DNA of 64,000 nt from Thermodesulfobacteriota bacterium (GTDB lineage: Bacteria; Desulfobacterota; Desulfobacteria; Desulfobacterales; SURF-7): the NCBI GenBank assembly GCA_049320885.1, contig JBMORA010000034.1:47245-111244 (forward strand), written 5' to 3'. The notes under the pieces were generated by a model. It was given only the letters and a program-made list of their open reading frames with translations. It had not been told where the DNA came from and did no database searches. Within the stretch, counting starts at the first letter, position 1, and each line of letters opens with the position of its first letter. Position numbers and translations under genes: made by a program. Below are positions 14,278 to 61,416 of this stretch, in pieces.

Positions 14278-14318
14278 TAATTACGAATTACGAATTAGGA
14301 TTTAGGAATTGCGGATGG
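14278..14318 (-). repeat. Heptamer tandem array (ATTCGTA family), upstream of the short flagellin RBS
   Basis: Plus strand TAATTACGAATTACGAATTAGGATTTAGGAATTGCGGATGG. Confidence 0.9.
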
Positions 14319-14397
14319 ATATCCATATGATATCCATTCTGTACGGATTAACCAGTAAAAAAAGATATACCCGTCCAGCGGTCCCGATTCGACGGAA

Positions 14398-14435
14398 CCT
14401 TCATTCGTAATTCGTAATTCCTAATTCGTAATTCC
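14398..14435 (+). repeat. Heptamer tandem array (ATTCGTA family) overlapping the 3' end of an ORF
   Basis: CCTTC ATTCGTA ATTCGTA ATTCCTA ATTCGTA ATTCC. Confidence 0.9.
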
Positions 14436-14802
14436 TTCTATAAAACGCCGCCGCCGCCTGCTGCTGATTCCTCTTGAAATCCGCACGATTCCTGTTTTCT
14501 TCGCGCTGGAAGGCCTCCGCTTCTTGCTGCTGGGCGCGCTTGAATTCGATTTCATTCCGTCGGGCCCGATTTTCAAAAGCCTCGGTTTCCCGTTGCTGCT
14601 CACGGTCAAACTCCTGCTTCGCCCGGACGCGGGCCTGCTCGGAAAGTCGAACGGAATAGGCGGCATCATCGCCTTGCTCATCCCCGGACGCATGGCGGCC
14701 GGCCCCTTTCAGGGCTGCTTTGCCCTCGGGTTGCATTGTCTGCGCCCCGGAAACCGAGAGCTGCGCAATGCCTGCCGTTATGTCATTCCCCATTACCTTC
14801 AT
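14401..14802 (-). CDS. Small hypothetical protein with 11-residue Phe periodicity
   Basis: RBS GAGGTG; YSVRLSEQAR motif followed by six Phe residues spaced exactly 11 apart. Confidence 0.65.
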   Translation of the reverse strand: MKVMGNDITAGIAQLSVSGAQTMQPEGKAALKGAGRHASGDEQGDDAAYSVRLSEQARVRAKQEFDREQQRETEAFENRARRNEIEFKRAQQQEAEAFQREENRNRADFKRNQQQAAAAFYRRNYELGITNYE

Positions 14803-14844
14803 TGAGATCACCTCAGCGATTGAAATTGCCTTACAGCCGTGCCA

Positions 14845-15108
14845 TCAACCCGCGATCTCTCCCGCCGCGTTATAGACGGCATTCTGATTCGCCGTCTGCT
14901 GTTCGGCTTGGGCCGCCTGACGCTCCTCCGTCTGTCGCCTGCGGGCCTCTTCCGACAACTCCACCTGATAGGCTTCCTTTGGAGCGGTATTCGCTGATTC
15001 CTCAGTCTTTTCATTCCGCTCCGGCTCCCTCGCCGCGCTCCTAGCATCCTCGGGACGCGCCGAATTCAACGCCTCGCCGCTGATACGCTCCAGCTGATTG
15101 ATTTCCAT
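14845..15108 (-). CDS. Small hypothetical protein (flagellar operon)
   Basis: RBS AAGGAG; 87 aa, low complexity, YQVELSEEAR motif, C-terminal YNAAGE. Confidence 0.7.
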   Translation of the reverse strand: MEINQLERISGEALNSARPEDARSAAREPERNEKTEESANTAPKEAYQVELSEEARRRQTEERQAAQAEQQTANQNAVYNAAGEIAG

Positions 15109-15157
15109 AAGCCAGCTCCTTCTTCTTTGTAAGGTTACGGTGTAATCCAGGACCGTT

Positions 15158-15793
15158 CTACCCGAACGTATCGACGGTCCCACCGGTTATCTGAACGGTC
15201 GTATCCGCTGAATAGGCTTTTTCAGCGCCGTATTGCCGAAACACCGGTTCTTCACGCGCCAGCGCCTTGTTTTCCCGCATTCGCGACAAGGTGTATTCCA
15301 TGGCTGCTTCAGCCCCCATCTGGGCCGCCTGGGCCGCTATCCGGCGGTCCTGGGCCGAAGGATCCCGGGGCGCCAGGGCGGCCCGTTGCACGGCCTTCAT
15401 TTTTTCAGCCGTGGCCTTGGGGTCGCCCGGCACTTTCCCCATATCGATGGACACTTCCCCGGCTACGGCATAAGATTTCCCATCCGGACCACGCTCGTAC
15501 TGAAACCGGGCGCCGCTGCGGACATATTGTCCTCCCGCCGTCACATGGGCCATCTCATGGGCTCGCACCGCCGCATCCGCCTGTTTCAACTGCTGGATCA
15601 GGTCCAATTCCGCCCGGGTCAACTCTCCGACGCCACTGATTTTCTTCCCTTCCGCCCCCCCGGATTGGCGGTTTCCGTTTGCGGCTCCGTCACCTCCCAT
15701 GGTCTCACCGGACCGGGTTTTCACCTCCGGACGGGCAGAACCACCGTTTTCGACAGACGGCTGAGGATATGGCTTCACGGTTCCGATTTTCAC
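15158..15793 (-). CDS. SprA-related / putative metalloprotease (HExxH) family protein
   Basis: D..VRAHEMAH..AGG, Y.RGPDGKSYAVAGEVSID, AALAP.DPS.QDR.IAA; GTG start with RBS GGAGG. Confidence 0.85.
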   Translation of the reverse strand: MKIGTVKPYPQPSVENGGSARPEVKTRSGETMGGDGAANGNRQSGGAEGKKISGVGELTRAELDLIQQLKQADAAVRAHEMAHVTAGGQYVRSGARFQYERGPDGKSYAVAGEVSIDMGKVPGDPKATAEKMKAVQRAALAPRDPSAQDRRIAAQAAQMGAEAAMEYTLSRMRENKALAREEPVFRQYGAEKAYSADTTVQITGGTVDTFG

Positions 15794-15814
15794 TCTTATA
15801 CCTCCGCTAATCTG

Positions 15815-15842
15815 TTATCGTCCCGGGACCGGGAAAACTTGA
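15815..15842 (-). promoter_or_regulatory. Putative sigma28 (FliA) promoter
   Basis: Minus strand TCAAGTTT...GACGATAA (TCAA-N16-GACGATAA). Confidence 0.65.
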
Positions 15843-15946
15843 GGAAAAAATATTTGACAATTGGGATGAAACCCATTATCACCATTTACAATTACCATTT
15901 ATTCAATGAAATCAATATTAAAAATAAAAGAAAGCCCCCTCGGCCC

Positions 15947-16450
15947 ATGCAAGGAAGACCTGTTCGCGCCAGCAAAATCACGTTCACCCAGTTAATGACG
16001 GCCCAGGATGCCAACCTTGCCGGCAATGTCCACGGCGGTGTGGTCATGAAACACATCGATAACGCCGCCGGTGTCGTTGCCGCGCGCCACGCCCAATCCA
16101 ACGTGGTGACCGCCAGCATCGACCGGCTGGATTTCCATAATCCGGCTTTCATCGGCAACCTGCTCCTGGTTCAAGCCAGTCTGAACATGGTGGGACGGTC
16201 CTCCATGGAAATCGGCGTCCGGGTGGAAAGCGAGGACATGTTCACCGGACGGAGACGTCATACCGCCTCCGCCTATCTGACCTTTGTAGCCCTGGACGAG
16301 CAGTTCAAACCCAAGGAAGTCCCCCCCCTGATTCTGGAAACGGATGACGAGAAACGACGCAACCGCGAAGCCCTGGCCAGACGGAATGTGCGCCTTGTGG
16401 AAAAACGCAAGGAAAAGGCCTGCCAGCGAGACAATGTGGCTTGCGATTAA
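15947..16450 (+). CDS. Acyl-CoA thioesterase (HotDog, YciA-like)
   Basis: DAN..GNVHGG.VMK.ID, VVTASID, VGRSSMEIGV, TFVALD. Confidence 0.92.
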   Translation: MQGRPVRASKITFTQLMTAQDANLAGNVHGGVVMKHIDNAAGVVAARHAQSNVVTASIDRLDFHNPAFIGNLLLVQASLNMVGRSSMEIGVRVESEDMFTGRRRHTASAYLTFVALDEQFKPKEVPPLILETDDEKRRNREALARRNVRLVEKRKEKACQRDNVACD

Positions 16451-16468
16451 CAGCAGCGGAAGGTGCCA

Positions 16469-17380
16469 ATGAAGATTCTGATCACCGGCGGCAGCGGATT
16501 CATCGGAACGGCTCTGAGCCGTTTTTTAGGTAAAAAAGGCCACCAGATCATCGCCCTTGGCACAACCCCGCCCCCGGATGTTTCCGACCCATCACGGTTC
16601 CGGTTCATCGCGGCGGATACCTCCCGATCCGGCCCCTGGCAACGGGAATTAAGTGGTGTGGACGCGGTGATCAATCTTACCGGCAGGACCATTTTCAAAC
16701 GCTGGACGGAGGCTTATAAGCAACAAATTTATGACAGCCGCATCCGCACCACCGCCAATATCGTGGAGGCCCTGCCGGATTCAAAAGGACTGGTGCTGGT
16801 GAGCGCCTCCGCGGCCGGGTTTTACGGCAACCGCGGAGACGCTGTTTTGACGGAGACGGAACCGGGGGGCGACGATTTTTTGGCGGTGGTCTGCCGGGAC
16901 TGGGAAAAAGCGGCGGGACTGGCGGAGTCAAAAGGCGCCCGGGTGGTGACCGCCCGGTTCGGTGTGGTGCTGGGAAAAAGCGGGGGCGCCCTGGCCCAGA
17001 TGATCCCGGCCTATCGGTTCTTCGTGGGCGGTCCCATCGGCAACGGCGGGCAATGGTTCCCCTGGATCCACATGGACGACCTTCTGAACGCCATGGATTT
17101 TATCTTTCAAAACGAACAGATCACCGGCCCGGTGAATTTCTGCGGCGAACACCCGGCCCGCAACCTCGATCTGGCAAAAGCCCTGGGAAAAGCCCTGGGC
17201 CGCCCCAGCTTCATGAAGGTGCCGGCTTTCATGATCCGGTTGCTCATGGGAGAACTGGGCAACGCCGTCCTCTTCAGCCAGCGGACCCGGCCCAAGGTCC
17301 TTCTGGATAACGGTTTTCATTTCACCTATCCGGACATCCAATCCGCCCTGAACCAGATCATCGGAGCGAGGGGGGATTGA
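16469..17380 (+). CDS. TIGR01777-type NAD(P)-dependent epimerase/oxidoreductase (YfcH-like)
   Basis: ITGGSGFIG, SRIRTT, FLAVVCRDWE, G.QWFPWIH.DD, SQR..P..L...GF.F.YP. Confidence 0.92.
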   Translation: MKILITGGSGFIGTALSRFLGKKGHQIIALGTTPPPDVSDPSRFRFIAADTSRSGPWQRELSGVDAVINLTGRTIFKRWTEAYKQQIYDSRIRTTANIVEALPDSKGLVLVSASAAGFYGNRGDAVLTETEPGGDDFLAVVCRDWEKAAGLAESKGARVVTARFGVVLGKSGGALAQMIPAYRFFVGGPIGNGGQWFPWIHMDDLLNAMDFIFQNEQITGPVNFCGEHPARNLDLAKALGKALGRPSFMKVPAFMIRLLMGELGNAVLFSQRTRPKVLLDNGFHFTYPDIQSALNQIIGARGD

Positions 17381-17510
17381 TCCAGCCCCCGGTAATCCTT
17401 ACCCACCACCCTGCAACTTTTTCCCGATCGACCGGGTGGCCCATTTGCCGGGTGACGGTCACTCCGTGGTATGTTTCGCTGGTTGACCCGCCTAGACTAT
17501 AATATCGCTG

Positions 17511-17551
17511 CCATCCGCCATTGGTAATTCGTAATTCGCAATTCGTAATTG
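17511..17551 (+). repeat. Heptamer tandem array (ATTCGTA family) abutting the island promoters
   Basis: CCATCCGCC ATTGGTA ATTCGTA ATTCGCA ATTCGTA ATTG. Confidence 0.85.
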
Positions 17552-17557
17552 TTTCTC

Positions 17558-17572
17558 TGGCATATGTTTTGC
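17558..17572 (+). promoter_or_regulatory. Putative sigma54 promoter of the glycosylation island
   Basis: TGGCATATGTTTTGC (GG-N10-GC). Confidence 0.65.
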
Positions 17573-17597
17573 GAGTAAAGTTAATCAAAAAGTTATA

Positions 17598-17625
17598 TCA
17601 AGGTTTCCGTTCCTTCGGCCGATAT
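17598..17625 (+). promoter_or_regulatory. Putative sigma28 promoter of the glycosylation island
   Basis: TCAA-N16-GCCGATAT. Confidence 0.75.
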
Positions 17626-17712
17626 AGAGAACAAACAGCCTGCAGGCAGCCACATTCGATGTTTGACGCTTTGTTGAAACCATCGGCAACTTCCTACAAT
17701 AAGGTGAAGAAG

Positions 17713-18966
17713 ATGTATCGCATTCAAGAAATCGGCAGTAAGGTTGACGTACCCGTTTCCACCATCCGGTACTGGCAGAAGGAATTCACGGAATTCATCA
17801 GTCCGGCCAAAACCAATGGCGGTCAAAAAAGGTATTCCGATGAAGATCTGGCCGTGCTGTCCAAAATCAAGGAAATGCTGCATGTCCAGAAAAAAAGCGT
17901 AGCTGAAGTCCGCAGATTGCTGAAAAAGGGGTATTCGGACTCACCCGATGTCGACTGGAGCAGCCAGAGTATCCTGATCACCGGCGGCACCGGCTCCTTC
18001 GGCAAGCATTTCTGCAAAATCATGACGGAAAAATACCATCCCAAGGTGATCCGGGTATACAGCCGCGATGAACTGAAACAGCATGAAATGCGTCAGCAGT
18101 TCGGGGAAAAGAAACTGCGCTATTTCATCGGCGACGTGCGCGACGGCGACCGCTTGCGCCGGGCCATGGAAGGGGTCGATTTCGTAATTCATGCGGCAGC
18201 CCTGAAACAGGTCCCGGCCTGTGAATACAACCCCTTCGAGGCTATCAAAACCAATGTCCACGGGGCCCAGAACGTCATCGATGCAGCCATTGACACCGGC
18301 GTGAAAAAGGTGATCGCCCTGTCCACCGACAAGGCGGTGAACCCGGTGAACCTTTACGGCGCCACCAAGCTCTGCTCGGACAAACTGTTTGTTCAGGGCA
18401 ACGCCTACGCCGGCAACAAGGGAACCCGGTTCGCCTGCGTCCGGTACGGCAATGTCATCGGCAGCCGCGGCAGCGTCATCCCGGTTTTCCTGAAACAGCG
18501 CCAAACCGGCACCATCACCATCACCGATCCCCGCATGACCCGCTTCTGGATCACCCTGGATCAGGCCGTTGAGCTGGTGCTGAAGGGTTTTCACCATATG
18601 CAGGGGGGCGAGATTTTCATTCCCAAAATTCCCAGCATGCGCATCATGGACCTGGCCCAGGCCATTGCCCCGGAATGCCGGATCGATTACATCGGCATCC
18701 GACCCGGCGAAAAACTCCATGAAGCCTTGACCGGAGAGGATGAAGGCCGCAACACCCTGTTTTATGACGGGATGTATATCACCATTCCGAGTCATTCCTG
18801 GTGGGAGCGCCAGAATTATGTTGAGGCCCGGGCCATGCCGGACGATTTCGTCTATACGAGCGACCGCAACAGCGACTGGATGGGCGTTGAGCAATTGCGG
18901 CAGATCGTTTTCGGCGCGGAAACGCAACAAACCAAATCGGTTCGCCAATTGGCGCATGCCGGCTGA
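17713..18966 (+). CDS. pseB: UDP-GlcNAc 4,6-dehydratase (inverting) with N-terminal MerR-type HTH fusion
   Basis: N-term YRIQEIGSKVDVPVSTIRYWQKEF...GGQKRYS (MerR); then ITGGTGSFG, SRDELKQ, HAAALKQVP, STDKAVNPVNLYGATK, RYGNVIGSRGSV. Alternative start 17659. Confidence 0.9.
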   Translation: MYRIQEIGSKVDVPVSTIRYWQKEFTEFISPAKTNGGQKRYSDEDLAVLSKIKEMLHVQKKSVAEVRRLLKKGYSDSPDVDWSSQSILITGGTGSFGKHFCKIMTEKYHPKVIRVYSRDELKQHEMRQQFGEKKLRYFIGDVRDGDRLRRAMEGVDFVIHAAALKQVPACEYNPFEAIKTNVHGAQNVIDAAIDTGVKKVIALSTDKAVNPVNLYGATKLCSDKLFVQGNAYAGNKGTRFACVRYGNVIGSRGSVIPVFLKQRQTGTITITDPRMTRFWITLDQAVELVLKGFHHMQGGEIFIPKIPSMRIMDLAQAIAPECRIDYIGIRPGEKLHEALTGEDEGRNTLFYDGMYITIPSHSWWERQNYVEARAMPDDFVYTSDRNSDWMGVEQLRQIVFGAETQQTKSVRQLAHAG

Positions 18967-18985
18967 CAAAGAAGGATGCAGAAAG

Positions 18986-19615
18986 ATGCTATCTTACAAG
19001 ACGGATCAAGAAGAATTCTGGACCGGCAGTTTCGGCAATTCCTATGTGAACCGCAACTCGGATATGGCCATTGCCGATGCCTATGAAGCCTTGTACCGAA
19101 AGATATTCGCCCGGATTGATCCCTTCGGCTCGCTGCTGGAGCTGGGCGCCAACGTGGGCATGAACATCCGAAGCCTGCGCAGGATCTACCCGGATGCAAG
19201 CTTTTCCTGTGTGGAAATCAATGCAAAAGCCGTGGAAAAACTGCGCCTCATCCCGGATCTGGAGATATACCACCAGTCGATCCTCGACTTTACCCCCTCC
19301 CGGCGCTGGGAAATGGTGCTGATCAAAACCGTGCTGATTCATATCAATCCGGAATTCCTGAATGTCGTCTACGATGTGCTTTACCGGTCCAGCAGCCGTT
19401 ACATCTGCCTGGCGGAATACTACAACACCACACCGGTGGAGGTTCCCTACCGGGGCCATTCCGAAAAGCTTTTCAAACGGGATTTCGCCGGTGAAATGCT
19501 CGATCGCCACCCGGATCTCCGGCTGCTGGATTACGGCTTTATTTACACCCGTGATACGGCCGTGCCCATCCGTGACGACCTCACCTGGTTCATCATGGAA
19601 AAAAGAGGCGCCTGA
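18986..19615 (+). CDS. Pseudaminic acid biosynthesis-associated SAM methyltransferase
   Basis: TDQEEFW.G.FG..Y..RN, ELGANVGMN, VLIHINP, YRGH...LFKRDFAGE. Confidence 0.88.
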   Translation: MLSYKTDQEEFWTGSFGNSYVNRNSDMAIADAYEALYRKIFARIDPFGSLLELGANVGMNIRSLRRIYPDASFSCVEINAKAVEKLRLIPDLEIYHQSILDFTPSRRWEMVLIKTVLIHINPEFLNVVYDVLYRSSSRYICLAEYYNTTPVEVPYRGHSEKLFKRDFAGEMLDRHPDLRLLDYGFIYTRDTAVPIRDDLTWFIMEKRGA

Positions 19616-19620
19616 AAACC

Positions 19621-22141: not shown

Positions 22142-22144
22142 AAC

Positions 22145-22849: not shown

Positions 22850-22856
22850 TCGGACG

Positions 22857-23849: not shown

Positions 23850-23859
23850 TGGGATTCCC

Positions 23860-40793: not shown

Positions 40794-40830
40794 CATCCAT
40801 TCGTCATTCGTAATTCCAGATTCGTAATTG
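40794..40830 (+). repeat. Degenerate heptamer array (ATTCGTA family) abutting the fliD promoter
   Basis: CATCC ATTCGTC ATTCGTA ATTCCAG ATTCGTA ATTG. Confidence 0.8.
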
Positions 40831-44103: not shown

Positions 44104-44214
44104 CAATTACGAATTGGGAATTACGAATTTTGATTTGAGATTCGAGATGGTCTGAGATTTGAGATGATCGGCGGGCTCTTGATCTGCAATTTCAAATCTC
44201 AAATTTGAAATCTC
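44104..44214. repeat. Composite heptamer arrays between convergent flaG and fliW
   Basis: AATTACG-type units, then TTTGAGA units, then inverted ATCTCAA/TTTGAAA units. Confidence 0.85.
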
Positions 44215-44216
44215 TC

Positions 44217-44928: not shown

Positions 44929-44978
44929 ATGCCCTCCCTGGCTCCGGCCGTCGCATCTCCGGCGACGGGATGCTGAAG

Positions 44979-45093
44979 AATTTGAGATTTGAAATTTGAG
45001 ATTTGAAAGTCCACCCCCATCTCAAATCTGAAATCTCAAATCAAAATGATACCATCCACCATTCGTAATTCGTAATTCCTAATTCGTCATTGT
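44979..45093. repeat. Composite heptamer arrays between flgL and csrA
   Basis: TTTGAGA/TTTGAAA x4, inverted ATCTCAA-type x3-4, then CCATCCACC ATTCGTA-type x4. Confidence 0.88.
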
Positions 45094-49422: not shown

Positions 49423-49480
49423 ACCGCCCGCCCTTCGTCAACCCGTTAGCCTGGTAGCCCAGACTGTAATTGACCCTGAT

Positions 49481-49532
49481 CCTTCATTCCTAATTCGTAA
49501 TTCCCAATTCGTCATTATCTTCCAATTCGTCA
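49481..49532 (+). repeat. Heptamer array immediately after the flgK stop
   Basis: CCTTC ATTCCTA ATTCGTA ATTCCCA ATTCGTC, plus an 18-bp tandem duplication spanning the stop codon. Confidence 0.85.
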
Positions 49533-52500
49533 TTATCTTATGGACACGATCGTATCCAGCATCTCATCCGACACTGTAAGCAGCTTGGCCGCCACGGTGT
49601 AGGCATGCTGAAATTTCATGATATTGATCATCTCCTCATCCAGGGACACCGCCGAAACGCTGTCCCGCAACTGGCCGATCTGGTCCACCATCACTTCACT
49701 GAATTCCCGGCTGCGCTGGATGGTCTGGGACTTGATCCCCAGGGAGCCCACCATCAGGTTCAGATAATCCCCCAGGGTTGCGCTGAGATTGCCGGCCCGG
49801 GCATCGAGACCACTTTCGAATGACCACTGGGACATGTCACGGGCCGTGTGCTCCACATTACTGATGGCCAGGGCGTTGGTGTTGTCGCCGGTGCTGATTT
49901 CACCGCTCCGGCCGTCTATGGTTGCCGCGGCGATATAGCCCTTGTTCTGACGGATGACGTCGTTGATGCCGATGGTCATGGCGTCGTCGCCGGTAAAAAA
50001 GGTGTTGACCCCCAGCGCGGCGCTCAAGCCCGCGTCACCGGCGCCGTTATCGGAAAAGGCGTAACTGTAAACCCCATTGTCGGGTGAAATACTGAAGGTC
50101 AGGGAACCGTTGTCGGAAACCGCCTGGTTGAAGTTCACCGCAATGGCCCGCAACCCGTCCAGGGAGACGTAAAAACCGTTGTCCAGGTCGAATCCGTCCA
50201 TGGGAATCAGTTCCACGTCATAACCCGGATTGGTGTATTCGGTGATCCCCCATCCGCCGGTGGACGCATACAGGGTATCATTGCGCTCGATGCGCAGGTT
50301 CGGCCAGGCCCGGTCCATGACCTCGTAGTTGCGCGCCGTGATGGTGCAGTTCTGCTCGCAGAAGCCGTCCGATCCGGTAAAACGGACATCAGCGATGTCA
50401 AAGCCGCTCGTATCCGCGGCGAAGGTGATGGCTTCATTGCGGACCGTCGCCTTGACCCCCAGGGTCTGACGGTTGAATTGATCCGCGAAGGATTCCATGG
50501 TCCAGTGCCAGTCCGAAGGCCGATGAACCGTGGCGGTCCCGTTCTCGTCGGTGGCGATGGTGAAGACATCGCCGTCGAAAAGGGTGCCGCTTTCGAATTG
50601 CAGCCGCATGCCATCCACATTGACGATGACCGGGGTCTGGGGTGGTGTCTCCCCCTTGATGGTGAAAGATCCGTAGGTGATGCGGTTGGTCCAGGTGATG
50701 GTGATATCATCACTGCCGATTTCGCCGCCGCCTTCCGGATCCACGGTGAAAATATACATATCGTTGACACTGTTGGCGAACCCCCTGGCTTTGAGGTCCA
50801 AAGGCGCCGCCTGTCCCGTTACGTCCGTATTGAGGGTGAAGGTGTTGCCCGCCACCAGATCGCCGTCGCTGATGGTGAAGGACAATCCGCCTTCATCCAC
50901 CTCGAAGGGACCTGAATCCGATACCGTAATCCGGCCCCGCTGACCGGTGAACACTCCGCCGGAAGTGAATTTTTCCCACTCGATGATCCCCTGGTCGCCG
51001 AAATTCCGGGAGGAAACTGAGTTGGTGGAAGGGTTGTTGGCTGTCAGCAAACGGTTGGCTGGGGCTTCCAGCCGGGCCAGGGTGCCGCCGCCGAAATTGT
51101 CGTCCGAAAAATGGGCCAGCTCGATGGGGGTGCCGTCGTTTTTCAGGATGGATACATGGGTTCCGTGCCGGCTCACCGAATAAACATGCGGATCCAGAGC
51201 TGCGGTCAGGGAAGCGGTGAGCCCGCCGGCGAATTCGATATCCGTATCGTCGCCCGGAGCCACGATATAGCTCACAAACGTGCCGTCCACATAGAAACTG
51301 ATACGGTTGTTGGGATCAAAGCCGATATATCCGCCGTCGCCCCCCAGGGTCAAAACGGAACTGTTCAGATTCACGGGCAAATCGGCCGGATTGTTGAAAA
51401 CACCGCCGGCGGCCCCGGCCACGTTGGACTGAATGAACAAACCCGGTTCCAGAATAATGGTGGCGGTCCCGGTTTTCACAGCGCTGTCGTCTCCCGCTCC
51501 GCCGCTTTCGGTGAGCGGCACACCGTCGAACAACATGGTATCGGTGTTCACCACGCTGGTAAAGGCCACCGCATCGGCACCATCCAGCGTCAAGGTGTCG
51601 GTCACACCGCTGACAGTCACATCGAAACCGCCATCGATGCCCACGGTTTCCGCGCCGTTGGTAAAGGTGAAGTCCGCGGCGTTTTCATCCGTGGCCGTGA
51701 TGGTGACGGACGTACCGTTCAGGGTCACGTAGGCGTTGGTGACCCGGGTATCCAGGCCCCGGTGGAAAGCCGCCGCCACGGCGGCGGCGTTGGTGGTATC
51801 CACCCGCCGCAAGTCCACGGTGATGTTGTCCGTGGCATTCACGGTGAAAGTCACGGTATTGTCGCCGGCATATTGTTCCAGATCCCCGCTGCCGTCGAAT
51901 ACCAGGGTATTGTCTCCCGCGGCCGGATACGCGCTGGTGCCGCCGCCCGCGGCGATGGCGAAGGATTCGTTCCCGCCGGGGCCGGCGGTGAGGGCCGCCA
52001 GATCCACATAACCGGCCGAGGCGTCACCGGTGATGGTCACCACGCCGCCCACCCGGGCCCAGGTGACGCCGATGGCGTTCAGGGCCGCGCCGTTGGCGAT
52101 GAGGGTATTCTCGAAATCCGTGGCCAGGGTGGTCTGATTGGTGTCATCGGTGACGGTATGGGTCATGGTCACGCTGCCCCGGGCCGTGGTGATGGAAAAA
52201 TCCGCCGTGTCGGCATTGGTGAAATTAGCGAAATTGCTCACATTCACCACGGTGTTGACCCCCAGGTTCTGGAAATTGTCCAGGATGGCCACCGCCAGAT
52301 CCTGCACGGCGAAATCCGCAATGCCGATGTTCTCCCCGCTCCGGCTGGTGATGGCGGCGGTGTTGCCAGTGTATTCCACCGCCAGGTCTTGGCCGAAATC
52401 GTTGATGGCGGCCACGGCGTTGTTCAGGGATTCCTGGAAATTGGCCCGGGTTTCGTAATCGAAGGCGCCCACCCGGAAGGCGACATCGGCGCTGCGGCCG

Positions 52501-54026: not shown

Positions 54027-54029
54027 GGG

Positions 54030-54533: not shown

Positions 54534-54624
54534 CCATCTCCTTTGCCCCGGCCGGACGGACCGCCGGCTGAAACCCGAAAACCACCCAGCCTTGTCATGC
54601 CCATCCCCCGAGTACTTACCATTA

Positions 54625-54651
54625 TCATCGGTATAACCGCTCCCTTCCTGA
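54625..54651 (-). promoter_or_regulatory. Putative sigma28 promoter for flgN-flgK-flgL
   Basis: Minus strand TCAG-N15-ACCGATGA. Confidence 0.6.
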
Positions 54652-54663
54652 AGCCGTCCCGAT

Positions 54664-54691
54664 CCTTCATTCGTAATTCGTAATTCGTAAT
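54664..54691 (+). repeat. Heptamer array immediately after the flgJ stop
   Basis: CCTTC ATTCGTA ATTCGTA ATTCGTA AT. Confidence 0.9.
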
Positions 54692-54695
54692 GGCT

Positions 54696-55022
54696 TTATT
54701 TGATTTTTTCTTTCAATTCCATATACATGGCCTCACCAAGCCCCATATTCTTATCGCTCCGGGCGATGTCCTCCGAAACCTGCCGATAGTACATGGATTC
54801 ATAGATATCCCGGGCCAGACTGCCGCCGAAAAGATCGCTTTTCGACAAGGAACTGCGCATGCTCTCAAACATCTGGTTCAACATGACCGCCTCGAAATCC
54901 GCGCAGGCCTGCCGGAGTTTGGCCTGCTCCTGCCGCAAATCCTTTTTTTTGGCACCGTCGGCCCGGGACGCGCCACTCGCTGCCCCGTCCGCCCGGCTGG
55001 CCCCGATTTTTCCCGTATCCAT
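54696..55022 (-). CDS. flgJ: Rod-binding protein (single-domain FlgJ)
   Basis: KLRQAC.DFEA..L.QM...MR, GLGE.MY.EL; no muramidase domain. Confidence 0.88.
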   Translation of the reverse strand: MDTGKIGASRADGAASGASRADGAKKKDLRQEQAKLRQACADFEAVMLNQMFESMRSSLSKSDLFGGSLARDIYESMYYRQVSEDIARSDKNMGLGEAMYMELKEKIK

Positions 55023-55081
55023 ACCGCTCTCCCTGTTTGAGTCTTCTGACCATTCACTCCCATGCAACTTACAATTGATCC

Positions 55082-55136
55082 CCATCCACCATCCACCATC
55101 CGCCATTCGTAATTCGTAATTCGTAATTCATAATTG
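55082..55136 (+). repeat. Heptamer array immediately after the flgI stop
   Basis: CCATCCA CCATCCA CCATCCG CC ATTCGTA x3 ATTCATA ATTG. Confidence 0.9.
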
Positions 55137-55139
55137 TCT

Positions 55140-56255
55140 TTATATGATGATCAAATCCGCCTGCATGGCCCCGGCGGCCTTGATGCTCTGAAAAATGCTG
55201 ATCATGTCCCGGGGGGTCACGCCGATGGCGTTCAGGGCCCGCACCAGATCACCGATGGTGGAGGCGCCCGGAACCAGCATCACCTTGCTTTTATCCTCTT
55301 TCATCGTGATCTGGGTATCCCGGGTGGTGACGGTCTCTCCGCTGGCAAAAGGTCCCGGCTGGGACACGGCTTCGCTTTCCGTGATGGTGATGCTGAGGTT
55401 TCCGTGTGAAATGGCCACAGTGGAAATCCGGACATTCTCACCGATAACCACCGTGCCGGTTTTTTCATTGACCACGATTTTGGCCACCGAATCCGGCATC
55501 ACTTCCAGGGTTTCGATGCCGGCGATGAACAGGGACACATCCATCCGCATCTCCGGGGGGATTTGAATCCACATGGTGGCGGAATCCACCGGCCTGGCCA
55601 GCCGTTTCCCCATGGCGGCATTGATGGTCTCCGAGATGCGCAGGGCAGTGGTGAAATCCGGATTGTACAGGGAAAGGGTCAAATCCCCCCTGCCATTCAG
55701 GGGCATGGGAATTTCCTTTTCCACCGTGGCCCCTCCCGCCACCCGGGCCACCAGCAGATGGTTTTTGATCACCGAACCGGCATCCCCGGCGGCTCCGGCT
55801 CCGCCGAGGGCCAGGGCGCCCTGGGCCAGGGCATAGGTATTGCCGTCCACGCCCTTGAGGGGTGTCAGGAGCAGGGTCCCGCCCACCAGACTCTTGGCGT
55901 CGCCCACGGAGGACACCATGATATCGATCTGGTTGCCCACCCGGGCAAAAGGCGGCATTTCCGCCGTCACCATGACGGCAGCCACGTTTTTGACTTTCAA
56001 CTGATCGGGGCTGACCTGGATCCCCATGCGGTCCATCATGTTCGACAGGGCCTGAATGGTAAAGCGGGCCTTCTGTTTGTCGCCCGTGCCGTTCAGGCCC
56101 ACCACCAGACCGTATCCGATCAGCTGATTGTTGCGCACGCCTTTAATGGAAACCAGTTCCTTGATCCGCACCCCATGGGCCGGCGGCGCGACTGCCAGCA
56201 GGAACAGCCCTGCCGCCGCGATCCAGATGCTTGCCTTTGTCCGATGTCCCATCAT
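55140..56255 (-). CDS. flgI: Flagellar P-ring protein
   Basis: RIKEL..I.GVR.NQLIGYGLVVGL.GTGD, KNVAAVMVTA, NEKTGTVV.G; start after RBS AGGAGG. Confidence 0.96.
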   Translation of the reverse strand: MMGHRTKASIWIAAAGLFLLAVAPPAHGVRIKELVSIKGVRNNQLIGYGLVVGLNGTGDKQKARFTIQALSNMMDRMGIQVSPDQLKVKNVAAVMVTAEMPPFARVGNQIDIMVSSVGDAKSLVGGTLLLTPLKGVDGNTYALAQGALALGGAGAAGDAGSVIKNHLLVARVAGGATVEKEIPMPLNGRGDLTLSLYNPDFTTALRISETINAAMGKRLARPVDSATMWIQIPPEMRMDVSLFIAGIETLEVMPDSVAKIVVNEKTGTVVIGENVRISTVAISHGNLSITITESEAVSQPGPFASGETVTTRDTQITMKEDKSKVMLVPGASTIGDLVRALNAIGVTPRDMISIFQSIKAAGAMQADLIII

Positions 56256-56270
56256 CCGCCCTCCTGGGGA

Positions 56271-56362
56271 TTCGAGATTTGAGATTTCAAATTTGAAATC
56301 AAAAAAACAAACTTTCTCAATCCACAATCTCAAATCTCAAATCTCAAATTTGAAATCTCAAA
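56271..56362. repeat. Inverted pair of TTTGAGA / ATCTCAA heptamer arrays between flgH and flgI
   Basis: TTCGAGATTTGAGATTTCAAATTTGAAAT ... ATCTCAAATCTCAAATCTCAAATTTGAAATCTCAAA. Confidence 0.9.
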
Positions 56363-57064
56363 TCAAAAAGGACTGACCCAGTCGATGATCCGCATTCCCC
56401 ATCCCACCCGCTGTTTGTCGCCCAAAACCCCCTCGCCGAAATATTCGATGCGGGCATCGGCCAGATAGGTCGATTTGATGTGGTTATCCGCAGTGACATC
56501 CTCCCGCCGGGCGATCCCGGAAACGGTGATGATCTGGTTTTCGTTGTTGACCCGCATCTCCCGCTTGCCGAAAACCACCATATTGCCGTTGGGGAGGACT
56601 TCCGTGATCCGGCCGCCGATGGAGGCCGTGACCCGGCCGCTGCGGTCGCTTTGCCCCTCGCCCTTGTGCTCGTTGGTCAGGCTGCTCTTCCAGAGAGCAC
56701 TGGGGCTCAAATTCTCGTTGATATTCTCCTGCCCGGTCAACCCGTCCACCGCCACTTCAAGGGTCCGTTCGGATTTCGTTTCCGTATTGGCGTCCACTTT
56801 GGATGATGTATTTTCCACAATGTCCACAATGATGGTATCCCCGGTGCGTCTTGCGCGGCGATCGACGAAAAGGAGTTCGCCGCCGTTTTCGGTCCACAAG
56901 GAGCCTTCCGCCGCCGGTTGGGCCGAATAGGAGTGTCCGGCCATGGGCGTTTGGGACTCCGGCAGTGGCATTACCGCATTGGTTTCCGGCCCGGAAGAAC
57001 ACCCGGCAACCATGATGACCAGCACCCACAGGGCCGCTGTCGAAACCCGCCGTTCTTTTTTCAT
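56363..57064 (-). CDS. flgH: Flagellar L-ring lipoprotein
   Basis: Lipobox VAGC; GSLW, D.RAR..GD, VLPNGN....G.RE..VN.E, ADARIEY.G.G, C-term PF. Confidence 0.95.
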   Translation of the reverse strand: MKKERRVSTAALWVLVIMVAGCSSGPETNAVMPLPESQTPMAGHSYSAQPAAEGSLWTENGGELLFVDRRARRTGDTIIVDIVENTSSKVDANTETKSERTLEVAVDGLTGQENINENLSPSALWKSSLTNEHKGEGQSDRSGRVTASIGGRITEVLPNGNMVVFGKREMRVNNENQIITVSGIARREDVTADNHIKSTYLADARIEYFGEGVLGDKQRVGWGMRIIDWVSPF

Positions 57065-57076
57065 GAAACCCTCCTG

Positions 57077-58093
57077 TTAAAAAACGATCTCCACGGTTTC
57101 GGCATCCACCACCCGTCCCATGACGATCCGTTCCGAGCCCGGGTTTTCCACCCGGATCTGATCCGCCGCTCCGCCGCTGGATTTGGCAATGCCGGTGGTC
57201 GCGACGCGCAGGGAGCCGCCGCCGACAATCAGCTTCACCCGATCCCCTTTATGAACCAGGATCGGATTGACCAGGCTGTTTCGGAACAAACAGGCGCCGG
57301 CTTCCAGACTTTTTTTCAACTGCTTGCCCACCGCCTCCTGGGCCGAACCAATTACATTATTCGAATTTCTTATAATATTCAAACTCTTAAGTTCAAGATC
57401 CGCCGCGGTCAGCACCGTTCCCCGGGCCAAGGCGCGCCGCAGACAAACCACCCGGGAAAACCGGTCCACCCAGGCGGAAATGTTCAGTTTCCCGGCGAAA
57501 TGACCGTCCACGGATACCGAAACCACGGCATCCAAGCGGCGGCGGTGCTTATCGGTTTTTTGTTCCGCAATGCCAAGGGACAGGTCGCCCAGGGGAAAAT
57601 TCGTTTTCCCCCGGACGGAGACACGCCGCAGAACGAAATCGGAACCGTCAATATAGGGCGCCAGCAAGGCCTTCAAACGGTCCTCCGGGACGATCTGGGA
57701 AAGCCGCTGGATGTGCACCTTCCGGGGCACCGACACCCGGGCATCCTCCGGAAAACCCGGAAGGGACTTCACCAGGCTTACCATTTTCCTTCCGGAAACC
57801 ATCTTCCCCATTCCCGGCAGGGGTGCTGCCCCCAAGTCCGCCTGGCTGAACGCATCCTGCTGCGGTCCGAATCCCCGGATGTCCGCCACTTCCCCCAGGC
57901 GGATGCGGTCTCCGGCGACCGCGGCTTCGGCCTTGATCCGCACCTGCGCCGGTTTGTTTCCATCCGGCGGAGACTGGGCCATGACCGGAAGAGCGGCCTG
58001 TAGCCATGCCAGGCAGCAGGCGCATCCGAACAACCGCCAGAATCGCCGCCCGCGGACCGTCAACCCGGGCATATGTGTCTTGGCATTTCCCAT
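57077..58093 (-). CDS. flgA: P-ring formation chaperone
   Basis: SAF-like R.L.RG.VL...D; LV.KGD.V, G.A...G...D.IRV.N..S...V.GRV. Confidence 0.9.
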   Translation of the reverse strand: MGNAKTHMPGLTVRGRRFWRLFGCACCLAWLQAALPVMAQSPPDGNKPAQVRIKAEAAVAGDRIRLGEVADIRGFGPQQDAFSQADLGAAPLPGMGKMVSGRKMVSLVKSLPGFPEDARVSVPRKVHIQRLSQIVPEDRLKALLAPYIDGSDFVLRRVSVRGKTNFPLGDLSLGIAEQKTDKHRRRLDAVVSVSVDGHFAGKLNISAWVDRFSRVVCLRRALARGTVLTAADLELKSLNIIRNSNNVIGSAQEAVGKQLKKSLEAGACLFRNSLVNPILVHKGDRVKLIVGGGSLRVATTGIAKSSGGAADQIRVENPGSERIVMGRVVDAETVEIVF

Positions 58094-58106
58094 GATCTCC
58101 CTGATC

Positions 58107-58889
58107 CTACCGTTTCAAGCCGTTGGCCAGGGACAGCATGCTGTCGGCCGTCTGCACGGTTTTGGAATTCGCCTCATACGCCCGCTGGCCGATGATCATC
58201 GCCACCATTTCCTCCACCACGCTGACATTGGACTTTTCCACAAAACCATTGGCGATGGTACCGAAGCCCTCATCCCCCGGGATGCCCTCGATGGCCTCGC
58301 CGGAACCCTCCGTGGGTCTCAGAAGATTCTGGCCCACCGCAAACAAGCCCGCCGGATTGATGAAATTGTAGATATTGATCTGCTCCTCCACCAGCACCGT
58401 GTCGCCGGCGCCATAGGCCGTAAGGGTGCCGTTGGATTGTACCGTCACCAGCACGGTTTCCTCGGGCAGGGAAATTTCCGGCTGCAGCCGGTCGCCGGCG
58501 GGGGTGGTGATGAACCCTTCGCTGTCCAGGGTGAAATTGCCGGCCCGGGTATACAACTCTTCATCCCCGTGCAATACCTGGAAAAATCCCCGGCCTTCGA
58601 TGGCCATGTCCAGATCGTTGCCGGTATTGACGAAATCCCCCTGGGTGAACAATTTCTGGACGCTGGACGGTTTCACCCCCATGCCCAGCTGGATGCCGGC
58701 GGGAATCTGGCCGCCGCCGGGGGTTTCCGCACCGGCGATCAGGAACGTCTGGTACATCAAATCCTGGAAATTGGCCCGGCTGCGTTTGAAACCGGTGGTG
58801 TCCACATTGGCCAGGTTGTTCGCCACCACATCCACATTGAGCTGTTGGGCCTGCATTCCCGATGCGCCGGTCCATAACGATCTGATCAT
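58107..58889 (-). CDS. flgG: Distal rod protein
   Basis: MIRSLWTGASGM.AQQ...DVVANNLANV.T.GFK, FQDL.YQ, SNV.VVEEMV.MI..QRAYE.NSK; 260 aa. Confidence 0.96.
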   Translation of the reverse strand: MIRSLWTGASGMQAQQLNVDVVANNLANVDTTGFKRSRANFQDLMYQTFLIAGAETPGGGQIPAGIQLGMGVKPSSVQKLFTQGDFVNTGNDLDMAIEGRGFFQVLHGDEELYTRAGNFTLDSEGFITTPAGDRLQPEISLPEETVLVTVQSNGTLTAYGAGDTVLVEEQINIYNFINPAGLFAVGQNLLRPTEGSGEAIEGIPGDEGFGTIANGFVEKSNVSVVEEMVAMIIGQRAYEANSKTVQTADSMLSLANGLKR

Positions 58890-58955
58890 GTGCTACCTCC
58901 GTTTGCGGTCATCCGGTTCGCCCGGTTTGCCGCTGTTTTCCATCAATTGACCACG

Positions 58956-58994
58956 ATCCGCCATTCGTAATTCGTAATTCCTAATTCGTAATTG
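58956..58994 (+). repeat. Heptamer array immediately after the flgF stop
   Basis: ATCCGCC ATTCGTA ATTCGTA ATTCCTA ATTCGTA ATTG. Confidence 0.9.
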
Positions 58995-58998
58995 TAGT

Positions 58999-59694
58999 TT
59001 ACAACCGTCCGACTTCCGTAACCGCCTTGCTGTCGATTTCGTCAAATGTCTGGATCATTTTCTGAAACGCCTCATACATGCGGTGCACCTGAATCATCTT
59101 GGTCATTTCCACCGCCGTTGCTATATTCGCGCCTTCCAATGCGCCCTGCTGGACCACGTATTGGTCGGCCGCGCGTTCATCCGCCGGCAACCCTTCATAG
59201 ACAAAAAGGGAAGAGCGGTCCTTGCGCAGCCTGGTCAGGTCGTCGAAGGTCACGATATCCAGCTGTCCGGCGACCTCACCGTCCACCCGGATTTCACCGT
59301 CCTCACTGATTTGAATATTATCGGTGGTTTCCGCTTCCGCGCCCTGAAGGACAATGGGGGCTCCGTCCCCCAGAACCGGATCGCCGTTCTGGGTCACCAG
59401 CTCCATGTCCTGATTGATCGTGAAGCCGCCGTCGCGGGTATAACGGATGCCTTCCGCCGTTTCGATTTTAAAGAATCCGTTCCCGGAAATCGCCACATCC
59501 AGATTGTTGCCGGTGGTCCGGATATCTCCGGACTGGAAATCCACCACCTGGGTTGCTTTCAGGGCCTGATCGAAGGCCAGAATGTCCGCCTTGAATCCGG
59601 TGGTGCCGACATTGGCGAGATGGTTGGCAATCAACTCGAACTGTCTTTCCTGGCGAAGTCCGCCCTGAACCGGCCGCGTCATTTGCAGAATCAT
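58999..59694 (-). CDS. flgF: Proximal rod protein
   Basis: IANHLANV.TTGFK, TGN.LDVAI.G.GFF, YTRDG.F, EMTKMI...R.YE..QK; upstream of flgG. Confidence 0.9.
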   Translation of the reverse strand: MILQMTRPVQGGLRQERQFELIANHLANVGTTGFKADILAFDQALKATQVVDFQSGDIRTTGNNLDVAISGNGFFKIETAEGIRYTRDGGFTINQDMELVTQNGDPVLGDGAPIVLQGAEAETTDNIQISEDGEIRVDGEVAGQLDIVTFDDLTRLRKDRSSLFVYEGLPADERAADQYVVQQGALEGANIATAVEMTKMIQVHRMYEAFQKMIQTFDEIDSKAVTEVGRL

Positions 59695-59726
59695 GGTGCC
59701 CTCTCTTTCGTTTCGACGGTATTCAT

Positions 59727-59742
59727 TGCAATATAAGTGCCA
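59727..59742 (-). promoter_or_regulatory. Sigma54 promoter of the flgF operon
   Basis: Minus strand TGGCACTTATATTGCA, a consensus -24/-12 site about 30 nt before the ATG. Confidence 0.85.
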
Positions 59743-59862
59743 CGGCAAACGCACCCTGGACTTACCTGGAAAACCCTTTGTCATCACGGTGCAAATCGTA
59801 TCACCAGCCCAAAAAGGCGGGGCCAAAGACAACCGGCGGTCTCCCGGCATGGCAAAAAATAC

Positions 59863-60141
59863 CTAGGCCGGTCGTTTTTTCCCATTGATGGAGTAGGCAA
59901 AGGCCAGTAATTCGGCAACGACGAGATAGACACTGGGCGGGATCTCGGCCTCCAGGTCAAGCTTGGAGAGGACTTCGACCAAATCCGGATCATCCTTTAC
60001 CGGGATTCCGTGTTTTTGGGCCAGGGCGATGATGGTTTCGGCAATATGTCCGCTTCCCTTTGCCGCCACTTTGGGGGCGTGGTCCTTCTGCGGCTGGTAT
60101 TTCAAGGCGACGGCCTTTTTGGTTTTGGATTTCGGGCTCAT
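59863..60141 (-). CDS. FlhB C-terminal-domain-like protein (EscU/YscU/HrcU switch family)
   Basis: KAVAL.Y....D.APKV.AKG.G.IAE.II..A....IP, EIP...Y.VVAE.LAF.Y. Confidence 0.9.
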   Translation of the reverse strand: MSPKSKTKKAVALKYQPQKDHAPKVAAKGSGHIAETIIALAQKHGIPVKDDPDLVEVLSKLDLEAEIPPSVYLVVAELLAFAYSINGKKRPA

Positions 60142-60182
60142 GGTAGGGTATGCAGCAATTATTCCAATTCTTCGATATCGGT

Positions 60183-61289
60183 CTACACCACTACATTCAA
60201 CAGACCTTCCTCCGCATGGACGCGCTGCAGGAAGGTGGTGGATACCGCGTCGGGAGTTCCGGCCAGACGGCAATCCAGGCCGGTCACCTGGAATCCGAGA
60301 AGCCTGAAGCGGTTTTTCAATTCCGGAATCCCCTCTTCGATGAGGTCCCGGACGGTTTCATCGGCGGTTTCAAAAAAGCCGTTCACCATGCGTTCGTAAA
60401 CGGAAAAATCGGCCGCCAGATGCCCGAGACGGGTAAGGTCCAGTAAAAAAGCGATCCTCACCGGGCCATGCCCTCCTTTTCGGGGGGCTTCCCGCCCGGC
60501 ATTCAGGTGGATCAGCAATTGCCCGAAGCGCCAGTCTCCGTCGACAGCAACCGGGAAGGGCAACAACAATTTCCCGGTGTCTTCCAGGGCCTGTTTGTTA
60601 AACAACTGGAACTCCTCGATCTGATCGATGAAAATGCGCGCCGGATTGACCGACTCCTTGCTCTCGCTCACCGCCTCGCGGAAATACTCCAACGCCAGGG
60701 CTTTGACATCCCCGGACGGCATATCCCTGACGCCGTCTGCTCCCGGTGGATGCGCCGACAACACCAGCTGTCTCAATTTATGTTCCCAGGCCATGCCGCC
60801 GCTTTGAATCAAGCGCGTCAAAAAGGCGCTGTCCGGTTTGTCCGACTGGAGCGCGATTTGGGTGAACAAGCGTCCCAACCGGCTGGTTTGCGAAACAGCC
60901 GGTTCCGTGCCGACTTTGACACCACCGTGGTCATTCAGCATTTCCAACAGGAATCGATAGGGTTCCTGACGGGTCGGCAGGGAGGGTAATCCATGCGGCT
61001 GGGCAGCCGGCCTTTCCGGAAGCGGCATCATTTTGAGCACCGTCTCATTCCCGGTTGAAACCACCCGCAGGGTAATCGTTTCTCCGGCTTTCAGCGGCGT
61101 GTGGCTTTTGACCGGGACCTCCCGTCCCAATATCCGCAAGACGGTTTCCCGGGAAGAGGAATCCCCGACCACCCTGGCCGTAATTATCTGGCCGGCCTTC
61201 AGATGGGTCGCCGCATCCTTCCCGCCGGCCTTCAAGTTGACGACCAGTTCGGAAGCGGAAAGCAGCAATTTCGAAATCGTCGGTTTCAC
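60183..61289 (-). CDS. FliK-like hook-length-control domain protein
   Basis: N-term G....A.V / L..GE.I.LRV; C-term LDL..LG.L...F, L..R....G pattern; usual neighbour of the FlhB-like gene. Confidence 0.7.
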   Translation of the reverse strand: MKPTISKLLLSASELVVNLKAGGKDAATHLKAGQIITARVVGDSSSRETVLRILGREVPVKSHTPLKAGETITLRVVSTGNETVLKMMPLPERPAAQPHGLPSLPTRQEPYRFLLEMLNDHGGVKVGTEPAVSQTSRLGRLFTQIALQSDKPDSAFLTRLIQSGGMAWEHKLRQLVLSAHPPGADGVRDMPSGDVKALALEYFREAVSESKESVNPARIFIDQIEEFQLFNKQALEDTGKLLLPFPVAVDGDWRFGQLLIHLNAGREAPRKGGHGPVRIAFLLDLTRLGHLAADFSVYERMVNGFFETADETVRDLIEEGIPELKNRFRLLGFQVTGLDCRLAGTPDAVSTTFLQRVHAEEGLLNVVV

Positions 61290-61318
61290 ATCGGTTCACC
61301 CCGGTTTGATCAAAACCG

Positions 61319-61416
61319 TTCCCCATCCACCATTTCTAATTCGTAATTCGTAATTCGTAATTCCTAATTGTTCCCCATCCGCCATTCGTAATTTGTAATT
61401 CGTAATTCCTAATTAT
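61319..61416 (+). repeat. Two tandem copies (52-bp period) of the full CCATCC-ATTCGTA element
   Basis: TTCCCCATCCACCATT... at 61319 and TTCCCCATCCGCCATT... at 61371. Confidence 0.9.

Follow-up and report, generated by a model that had tools for sequence, protein, structure and literature searches.

Polar heptamer arrays at gene boundaries of a Thermodesulfobacteriota genome share their units with the inverted arms of small four-helix-bundle gene cassettes

The short tandemly repeated repetitive (STRR) heptamers of cyanobacteria are a class of repeats related to those reported here, which are polar arrays of the heptamers AATTACG (family A) and TTTGAGA (family B) in a 64-kb stretch of the genome of a Thermodesulfobacteriota bacterium. 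This whole stretch, hereafter the window, is G000:C34:47245-111244, where G000 denotes the source genome (5.61 Mb, 68 contigs, 55.8% G+C), and it carries a large set of flagellar genes. We found that the same units make up the inverted arms of small cassettes carrying a four-helix-bundle gene elsewhere in the genome.

The closest described repeats are GGGAATC of Xanthomonas and GGGGA(C/T)T of Nostoc, which the relevant passages of Rehm 2015 (PMC4692102) present as genome-wide intergenic heptamers, mostly transcribed, for which no function was found. According to the same passages, they lie nearer to the 5' neighbouring open reading frame (ORF) whatever the orientation, lying on the coding strand directly past stops and on the non-coding strand directly ahead of starts. 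Four units are preferred, which the authors linked to the G-quadruplex, and convergent inverted pairs occur. Their positions are kept between related species while length and sequence vary, and their neighbours belong to all classes, including flagellar and type II secretion genes. The arrays described here share with this class, as far as those passages characterize it, the intergenic spread, the proximity to the 5' ORF, the four units, the inverted pairs, the retention of sites in relatives despite changes in length and sequence, and the neighbours of all classes, and a variant unit one base from GGGAATC, GGGAATT, is also present in the source genome. In contrast to these repeats, AATTACG has a single G and forms no quadruplex, and the arrays have a conserved non-repeat head and tail. 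Four-helix-bundle genes are not mentioned in the abstract, sections 15-16 or matched passages of that paper.

The TAACTGA direct repeats of marine Beggiatoaceae, some Cyanobacteria and Bacteroidetes are also polar and precede start codons, and the passages of MacGregor 2015 (PMC4679880) devoted to them leave their function unexplained. Like the arrays here, they are described there as intergenic sets of 2-6 units with a patchy, lineage-restricted distribution, a fixed orientation to the adjacent start and no functional pattern in their neighbours. However, those sets usually stand in place of the ribosome-binding site and stop ~1 nt short of the start, whereas the arrays here leave a strong GGGGG or GGAGG site between head and start and are found more often past stops (36 copies) than before starts (22). 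Multicopy heptanucleotide elements of four and five units were reported in Geobacter metallireducens (Aklujkar 2009, PMC2700814, in its account of these elements). With them and with repetitive extragenic palindromic (REP) sequences, bacterial interspersed mosaic elements (BIMEs) and REP doublets (REPINs), the arrays have in common that they are short, species-specific extragenic repeats past stops and between operon genes, often in inverted pairs. Unlike REP, BIME and REPIN elements, solo A elements are not palindromic, and no transposase of the REP-associated tyrosine transposase (RAYT) type is associated with them.

In Coxiella burnetii, the intervening sequence (IVS) of the 23S rRNA consists of an S23p ORF with terminal inverted repeats forming a 28-bp stem and contains tandem GACAGAT/GACAGAA heptamers whose number varies between strains; RNase III cuts the stem in vitro (Warrier 2016, PMC4990558, in the parts dealing with this element). 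The cassettes reported below resemble the IVS, as portrayed in those parts, in their four-helix-bundle ORF, which belongs to the S23p family, inverted terminal repeats, stem of ~28-33 bp and tandem heptamers in the arm, but the cassettes and arms are found between protein-coding genes and not in 23S rRNA helix 45, and most copies have no ORF. A true 23S rRNA intervening sequence was ruled out for the window, in which all copies are situated between protein-coding genes and Rfam gave no match. Judged by their sequence, the arrays add a new, AT-rich member to the polar intergenic heptamers.

Anatomy and polarity of the heptamer arrays

Tandem Repeats Finder returned 18 period-7 rows in the window, which extended from 14279 to 61414 and were spread over 11 intergenic gaps, with two arrays in the 14.3 kb gap. 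It returned none upstream of 14279, in agreement with a preliminary description of this DNA, which had reported period-7 arrays and their absence from 1-13 kb. Genome-wide, a scan with a 21-nt window and at most 3 mismatches to a periodic template found 66 A and 22 B arrays. The arrays exceed chance: nine of the 12 permuted control heptamers gave no array, and the others gave 19, 12 and 2. Of these, CGTAAAT (12 arrays) differs from the real unit by one mismatch, and the 19 arrays of GAAATTC probably belong to a further AT-rich heptamer family. Among tandem repeats with 2.8 or more copies in intergenic DNA, 103 arrays were of period 7, compared with 13 of period 6, 18 of period 8 and 37 of period 9.

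The window arrays fall into two families, A (AATTACG, or ATTCGTA on the other strand) and B (TTTGAGA/TCTCAAA). Three had been proposed, and of these ATTCGTA and ATCTCAA/TTTGARA stand, while CCATCCR proved to be the reverse strand of the GGATGG tail of family A. The proposed architecture (CCATCCR)n-(ATTCGTA)3-4-ATTG is likewise the reverse strand of the family A consensus, which reads RRC-AATTACG-AATTAGG-AATTACG-AATTACG-AATGRNG-GATGGGGATCAATT in the AATTACG direction and aligns 65 of the 66 anchored copies. In generalized form, the element has an RRC head, four AATTRNG units, AATGRNG and then GATGGGGATCAATT, and its information content reaches zero ~20 nt past the last unit. The array has a fixed length of ~35 bp, and the whole A arm is ~50-55 bp. 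Unit number is near-constant, with four full units and one terminal degenerate unit in 43/66 A arrays of G000 and in 27/32 of its congener G001. Within the unit, positions 5-6 vary and AATT and the final G are kept; ACG (52%) and AGG (15%) lead in G000, with others behind, and ATG (31%), AGG (23%) and ACG (21%) in G001, and units at orthologous sites follow the flavour of their own genome.

Neither unit has a G-tract, and GG runs occur only in the GGATGG tail, so that G-quadruplex formation, which needs four G-tracts, was ruled out for A and B units. Because these AT-rich arrays obey the polarity and four-unit rules without quadruplex potential, the rules cannot rest on quadruplex formation. 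A three-frame stop insulator was also rejected: TAA occurs in all frames on the ATTCGTA strand, but the B stop is on the TTTGAGA strand, the one that follows stops, which leaves no common rule. The tail side of A elements sometimes runs directly into other heptamer arrays (CAACCAT, CTGTCTC, CCCTATT), giving mosaic multi-family spacers, as at G000:C1:98519-98550, C2:25272-25300 and C25:29975-30040.

The arrays are polar with respect to the adjacent genes. In gaps delimited with our own crude gene caller, whose stops are exact and whose starts, taken as the most upstream start codons, are uncertain, the median distance to the nearest ORF end was 5 nt for the AATT head and 73 nt for the tail side. 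The head was nearer to the adjacent ORF end in 44 of the 57 A arrays outside called ORFs (p = 5e-5) and in 35/46 solo arrays. Next to the head lay a stop on the same strand in 36 cases and a start on the other strand in 22 cases; since start-side heads abut genuine GGGGG or GAGG ribosome-binding sites followed by ATG, polarity on the start side is not an artefact of ORF calling. By raw distances, all nine arrays in convergent gaps were nearer to the stop of the 5' neighbour. Independently of gene calls, neighbouring inverted pairs were arranged heads-out in 5/5 A pairs and 8/8 B pairs, and the opposite arrangement was never found. The head was also nearer in 18/26 arrays of G001 (135 kb) and in 4/6 of another congener, G002. 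Tabulating distance and strand over the whole genome, as had been suggested, thus revealed non-random polarity.

The preliminary description had taken the arrays for marks of flagellar gene boundaries. As a polar boundary feature they are confirmed, with all 13 inverted pairs heads-out and an ~18-fold enrichment in the window (10 loci observed, 0.55 expected). A flagellum-specific signal was ruled out, since 54/66 A arrays lie outside the window, many of them beside housekeeping operons. Genome-wide, their neighbours are of all functional kinds, including topA, gspE/F, gltX, dnaJ, sucA/B, valS, transketolase (tkt) and benzoyl-CoA-reductase-like genes, acyl-CoA dehydrogenases (beta-oxidation), fliN/O/P, flhF/fliA, cheB/R/W/Y, ppdK, putA, hdrA, glgA, porC, gatB and icmF. 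A weak association of the arrays with local GC skew was seen (Fisher p = 0.03). At C15 of G000, a Cas6 gene adjoins an A array.

Heptamer arms around four-helix-bundle genes

The same units flank a small gene family elsewhere in the genome. G000 has six TIGR02436 genes ('23S rRNA intervening-sequence protein', PF05635, Avd-like; here four-helix-bundle genes), all of which adjoin heptamer arrays, and five of the six are bracketed by inverted arrays. The six cassettes carry five arm families: family A arms lie on both sides of the gene at C25:39434-39805, a family B pair lies beside the gene at C4:15605-15841, AGGCTAT is found at C35 and ATTGRGG at C22, and two genes on C23 share GACAGAA-type units. 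These five units account, within one mismatch, for 89 of the 103 intergenic period-7 arrays. In the fold of the A cassette, the arms form a terminal stem of ~33 bp around the ORF (z -4.6). The window holds no cassette, which is why the preliminary description could not see them, and no link between heptamer arrays and four-helix-bundle cassettes was found in the papers that literature searches returned. On C23 (12428-14161), two four-helix-bundle cassettes stand in tandem, and the GACAGAA of their arms is the heptamer of the Coxiella burnetii 23S rRNA intervening sequence. On C4 (8920-15240), a type I-E cas7 gene is followed by ~5 kb without a called gene, and this stretch adjoins the B-armed four-helix-bundle gene.

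In relatives, 9 of 14 aligned four-helix-bundle genes had heptamer arrays on both sides, and the protein subfamily goes with the arm unit, with identities of 79% among A-cognates, 91% among B-cognates and 80-85% within the GACAGAA group; two subfamilies lack arrays. Among the congeners G000, G001 and G002, array abundance tracks the cognate gene. At one mismatch or less, the A pattern gave 98 matches in G000, 111 in G001, 10, mostly short, in G002, one in G005 and none in the 37 other relatives searched, and a reversed A control gave none in any genome searched. B pattern matches numbered 25 in G000, 81 in G001, none in G002, 24 in G026 (another family of the same order) and 1-3 in six other relatives. 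Only G000 and G001, in which A and B arrays are plentiful, had orthologues of the A- and B-cognate genes; G002 lacks both. Likewise, TGAAGGG has a cassette in G001 and 43 matches there, compared with 2 in G000 and 1 in G002, and CAACCAT has a cassette in G002 and 11 matches there, compared with 2 in G000 and none in G001. A 75-kb stretch of G001 (C100:26000-101000), which is not its flagellar region, contains 27 A arrays and an A-armed four-helix-bundle gene.

Arrays of the flagellar window and its orthologous gaps

Pfam confirmed the gene names at the array sites. The window contains a flagellin (13433-14275, minus), a flagellin-glycosylation island (15233-35076), a 1295-aa flagellin, fliD, fliS, flaG, fliW, csrA, flgL, flgK, flgN, flgJ, flgI, flgH, flgA, flgG, flgF, an FlhB C-terminal-like gene, fliK and a DUF6115 gene. 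The array positions are collected in Table 1.

Table 1 Heptamer arrays of families A and B in the window (window coordinates)
Feature	Position	Strand	Context
Family A arm	14275..14310	+	AATTACG on + strand; head abuts GGGGGG ribosome-binding site and start of flagellin gene (13433-14275, minus)
Family A arm	14398..14437	-	Head abuts stop of ORF 14401-14811 (minus); inverted partner of 14275-14310, 87 nt apart
Family A element with CCATCC tail	17511..17553	-	Upstream of sigma-28-like motif and pseB-like gene
Short family A array	40794..40829	-	6 nt upstream of TCAAG-N16-GCCGATGA motif preceding fliD
Family A array	44104..44130	+	Begins 3 nt past flaG stop
Family B inverted pair	44128..44215	.	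TTTGAGA arm 44128-44148, TCTCAAA arm 44182-44215; between convergent flaG and fliW
Family B inverted pair	44978..45046	.	Hairpin in csrA leader
Family A element	45057..45092	-	Past flgL stop; head 8 nt downstream of CCGATAT motif conserved in three species
Family A array and 18-nt partial duplicate	49482..49539	-	Begins 3 nt past flgK stop
Family A element	54662..54695	-	4 nt past flgJ stop
Family A element with (CCATCCA)4 tail	55078..55137	-	2 nt past flgI stop
Family B inverted pair	56265..56365	.	Between flgH (stop inside first unit) and flgI ribosome-binding site
Family A element	58956..58995	-	3 nt past flgF stop
Two tandem family A elements	61331..61417	-	Past stop of DUF6115 gene (61419-61901)

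The orientation rule stated in the preliminary description was borne out at each site that it named. On the stop side, A arrays lie 2-4 nt past the stops of flaG, flgJ, flgI, flgF and the ORF at 61419, the flgK stop is reached via the partial duplicate, and B arrays follow or overlap the flgH and fliW stops. On the start side, the complementary strand precedes the flagellin ribosome-binding site (14279), the motifs at 17.6 kb and 40.8 kb, and the ribosome-binding sites of csrA and flgI. These two motifs (TCAAG-N16-GCCGATA), read from the sequence just past the heads of two A arrays in 17590-17640 and 40830-40865, are sigma-28-like and putative promoters. In the csrA leader (45093-45125), the CCGATAT motif stands 8 nt before the A head in all three congeners, and the csrA-fliW transcript may start at the array. 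The longest ORF of the pseB-like dehydratase (17521-18966) has a TTG start inside an A array and a MerR HTH match at residues 66-135 ahead of Polysacc_synt_2; it may be a fusion or an over-extended call.

B arrays nearly always form an inverted pair with a short spacer. The pairs at flgH-flgI (-41.5 kcal/mol, z -4.5) and in the csrA leader (-35.8 kcal/mol, z -4.0) are long AU-rich hairpins, the A pair upstream of flagellin at 14.3 kb makes a long stem around ~90 nt (z -6.8), and the B pair between flaG and fliW does not stand out (z -1.1). A role as intrinsic terminators was rejected: array arms formed none of the 18 terminator-like sites in 43500-62000, a total not above that of shuffled sequences (20.2 expected), and the site nearest an array, a short stem, lies within the final part of flgH next to the B array.

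Comparing orthologous gaps, as the preliminary description had proposed, revealed gain and loss of arrays between the three congeners G000, G001 and G002. Their flagellar regions were located via FlgI, whose closest named record, at 88% identity, is from a metagenome-assembled genome labelled Desulfosudis oleivorans. All three have arrays at the pair upstream of flagellin, in the epimerase/pseB-like gap and in the csrA/flgL gap. The flgF/flgG gap is filled in G000 and G002 and is a 20-nt gap without an array in G001, and the flgI/flgJ, flgJ/flgN, flgL/flgK and fliK/DUF6115 gaps are filled in G000 only. The element at the flgJ stop (54662..54695) is absent in G001 and degenerate or absent in G002; the array before fliD (40794..40829) is present in G002 and not in G001; and the B hairpin at flgH/flgI is present in G000, G001 and L009 and absent in G002, the L009 and G001 states being identical and perhaps not independent. 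Filled junctions lengthen from ~20 nt to ~110 nt and retain the native stop and ribosome-binding site.

Other features of the window were observed apart from the arrays. The flagellin (36755-40642, 1295 aa), FlgL (45151-49422, 1423 aa) and FlgK (49533-54026, 1497 aa) are giant, and tandem repeats of 123-126 nt (38262-38655, 39248-39562) and matches to hexapeptide repeats occur within the giant flagellin. The stretch from the glycosylation island to the giant flagellin includes two PIN-domain genes (35243-35773, 36061-36489), neither of which occurs in the orthologous regions of G001 or G002. In-frame tandem repeat units of 108 nt (1565-2949) and of 93-96 nt (63232-64000) lie inside the ORFs at 1375-3432 (minus) and 62342-64000 (minus), respectively.

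Origin and possible role of the arrays

Among the mechanisms listed in the preliminary description, scars of a cassette mechanism fit best, since the inverted arms of four-helix-bundle cassettes, found elsewhere in the genome, are built from these units. We consider it fairly probable, from sequence comparisons, that the arrays are repeat arms of small IVS-like cassettes, mostly in the form of gene-less copies, within the polar heptamer class. A complete cassette would consist of a TIGR02436 gene between two inverted arrays, with the outer heads facing the flanking genes and a stem of ~33 bp; the solo arms and heads-out pairs of families A and B in short gaps may be products of spread or of retention. 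Should the head form the outer end of the element, it would lie against whichever feature bounds the gap, whether a stop or, on the other strand, a ribosome-binding site or promoter, which would give the polarity rule without invoking transcription. The arrays would be transcribed within operon mRNAs. The paired arms between flgH and flgI and in the leaders of csrA and flagellin are long enough for RNase III substrates, and by analogy with the Coxiella IVS they might serve as stems for RNase III-type processing or for stability. Solo arms are unstructured AU-rich spacers and may be mostly neutral.

Several observations weigh against an origin from cassettes. If the element is taken to include its conserved 22-nt tail, polarity falls to 36 versus 22 (36/58, p = 0.09), a test that is conservative because the called start codons are the most upstream ones; the gene boundaries themselves come from a crude caller with uncertain start codons. 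GACAGAA has 12 matches in G001, where no such cassette was found, and a single match in G002, where the cassette is present. G026, a 1200-contig assembly, has its 24 B matches without a B-cognate orthologue. The three congeners are kin, so that the co-occurrence of gene and arrays among them is a pattern and not an independent statistical test. In addition, tblastn with 20 proteins found no remnant of a four-helix-bundle gene in 74 gene-less array gaps (27.4 kb); the matches consisted of B-array translations and of the C4 cassette gene to itself, the rest being at the level of an equal-size control set. This result lends no support to a decay of cassettes in place.

The arrays could instead be double-stranded DNA sites for a host protein, nucleoid-associated or regulatory, that marks or insulates gene boundaries and is unconnected to the cassettes. 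We judge this unlikely, although several observations accord with it. The head faces the ORF on either strand, such that the RNAs at stops and starts are complementary while the DNA element is identical; array length is fixed at ~35 bp; the unit flavour is species-specific at orthologous sites too (ACG 52% in G000, ATG 31% in G001); and arrays persist at five orthologous gaps while flanks diverge, with array columns ~76% identical and flanks 61%, although periodic sequence aligns easily. However, no candidate protein was identified, many of the sites are lineage-specific insertions, and the units shared with cassette arms would be left as a coincidence. Roles as CsrA sites, RNase E sites, ribosomal protein S1 enhancers or UP-elements, to which motif resemblance might point, are not claimed.

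A dispersed, genus-restricted repeat that lies past stops, often in inverted pairs, and differs in presence between relatives is also what would be expected of mobile repeats of the REP/REPIN type or of miniature inverted-repeat transposable elements (MITEs), moved by a RAYT or other transposase with no role for the four-helix-bundle genes. Clustering agrees with such mobility, as 37 of 58 loci have another locus within 10 kb (mean 10, maximum 26 in 2000 random placements), and assembly contigs of the probable source run break at arrays. We nevertheless regard it as quite improbable. A REPIN-RAYT system was ruled out, because no A or B array lies within 2.5 kb of any of the eight Y1_Tnp (PF01797) loci in the genome and solo A elements, besides not being palindromic, do not fold (z +0.5 for 55078..55137, and z +0.15). 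MITEs were ruled out as well: pair interiors (82-196 nt) are dissimilar, conservation stops ~20 nt past the array, and no target duplication was seen between filled and empty sites. The sole RVT_1 gene of the genome (C15:21248-21859) does not adjoin arrays.

Heptamers are over-represented in many bacteria. The arrays might arise in place by polymerase slippage, shaped only by selection on what a gap tolerates and with no template or source element. A polymerase-slippage hypothesis is cited in a passage of Rehm 2015 (PMC4692102). Contigs from four DNA runs were compared, those of runs other than the probable source run being short and giving little information on variation. A contig of the probable source run, which may derive from the source sample, carries one ambiguous extra ATTCGTA unit at 54668, as slippage would produce, but three contigs from other runs bridge arrays without length change. 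Slippage also fails to account for the defined non-repeat ends (the RRC head and conserved 22-nt tail), the fixed unit number and the recurrence of one composite element at 66 sites, and we hold it to be very improbable. Phase-variation (contingency) repeats that switch flagellar and surface genes, which the enrichment in flagellar, chemotaxis and pilus loci might suggest, have almost no likelihood, given that most arrays are in housekeeping operons and past stops, not within ORFs or promoter spacers, and that unit number is fixed and bridging contigs from other studies are identical.

Returning to the arms of IVS-like cassettes, the four-helix-bundle protein might recognise or maintain its own arm family. 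Our tentative proposal, which we put forward as a possibility with the odds against it, is that each such protein recognises its own heptamer arm and that the cassette is the source or keeper of gene-less boundary arms genome-wide. The comparison of three congeners, which assigns one cognate cassette gene each to the abundant A and B arrays, points to a concrete, testable partner. Expression could be affected by the long stems between flgH and flgI and in the leaders of csrA and flagellin, and an AT-rich family with the polarity and unit number of the G-rich heptamers argues against explaining such repeats by G-quadruplexes. If the proposal is true, the polar heptamer repeats of many bacteria (STRR, GGGAATC, TAACTGA) would have one explanation, and the arrays would be a trans-controlled layer of mRNA processing or boundary marking in operons, including flagellar ones.

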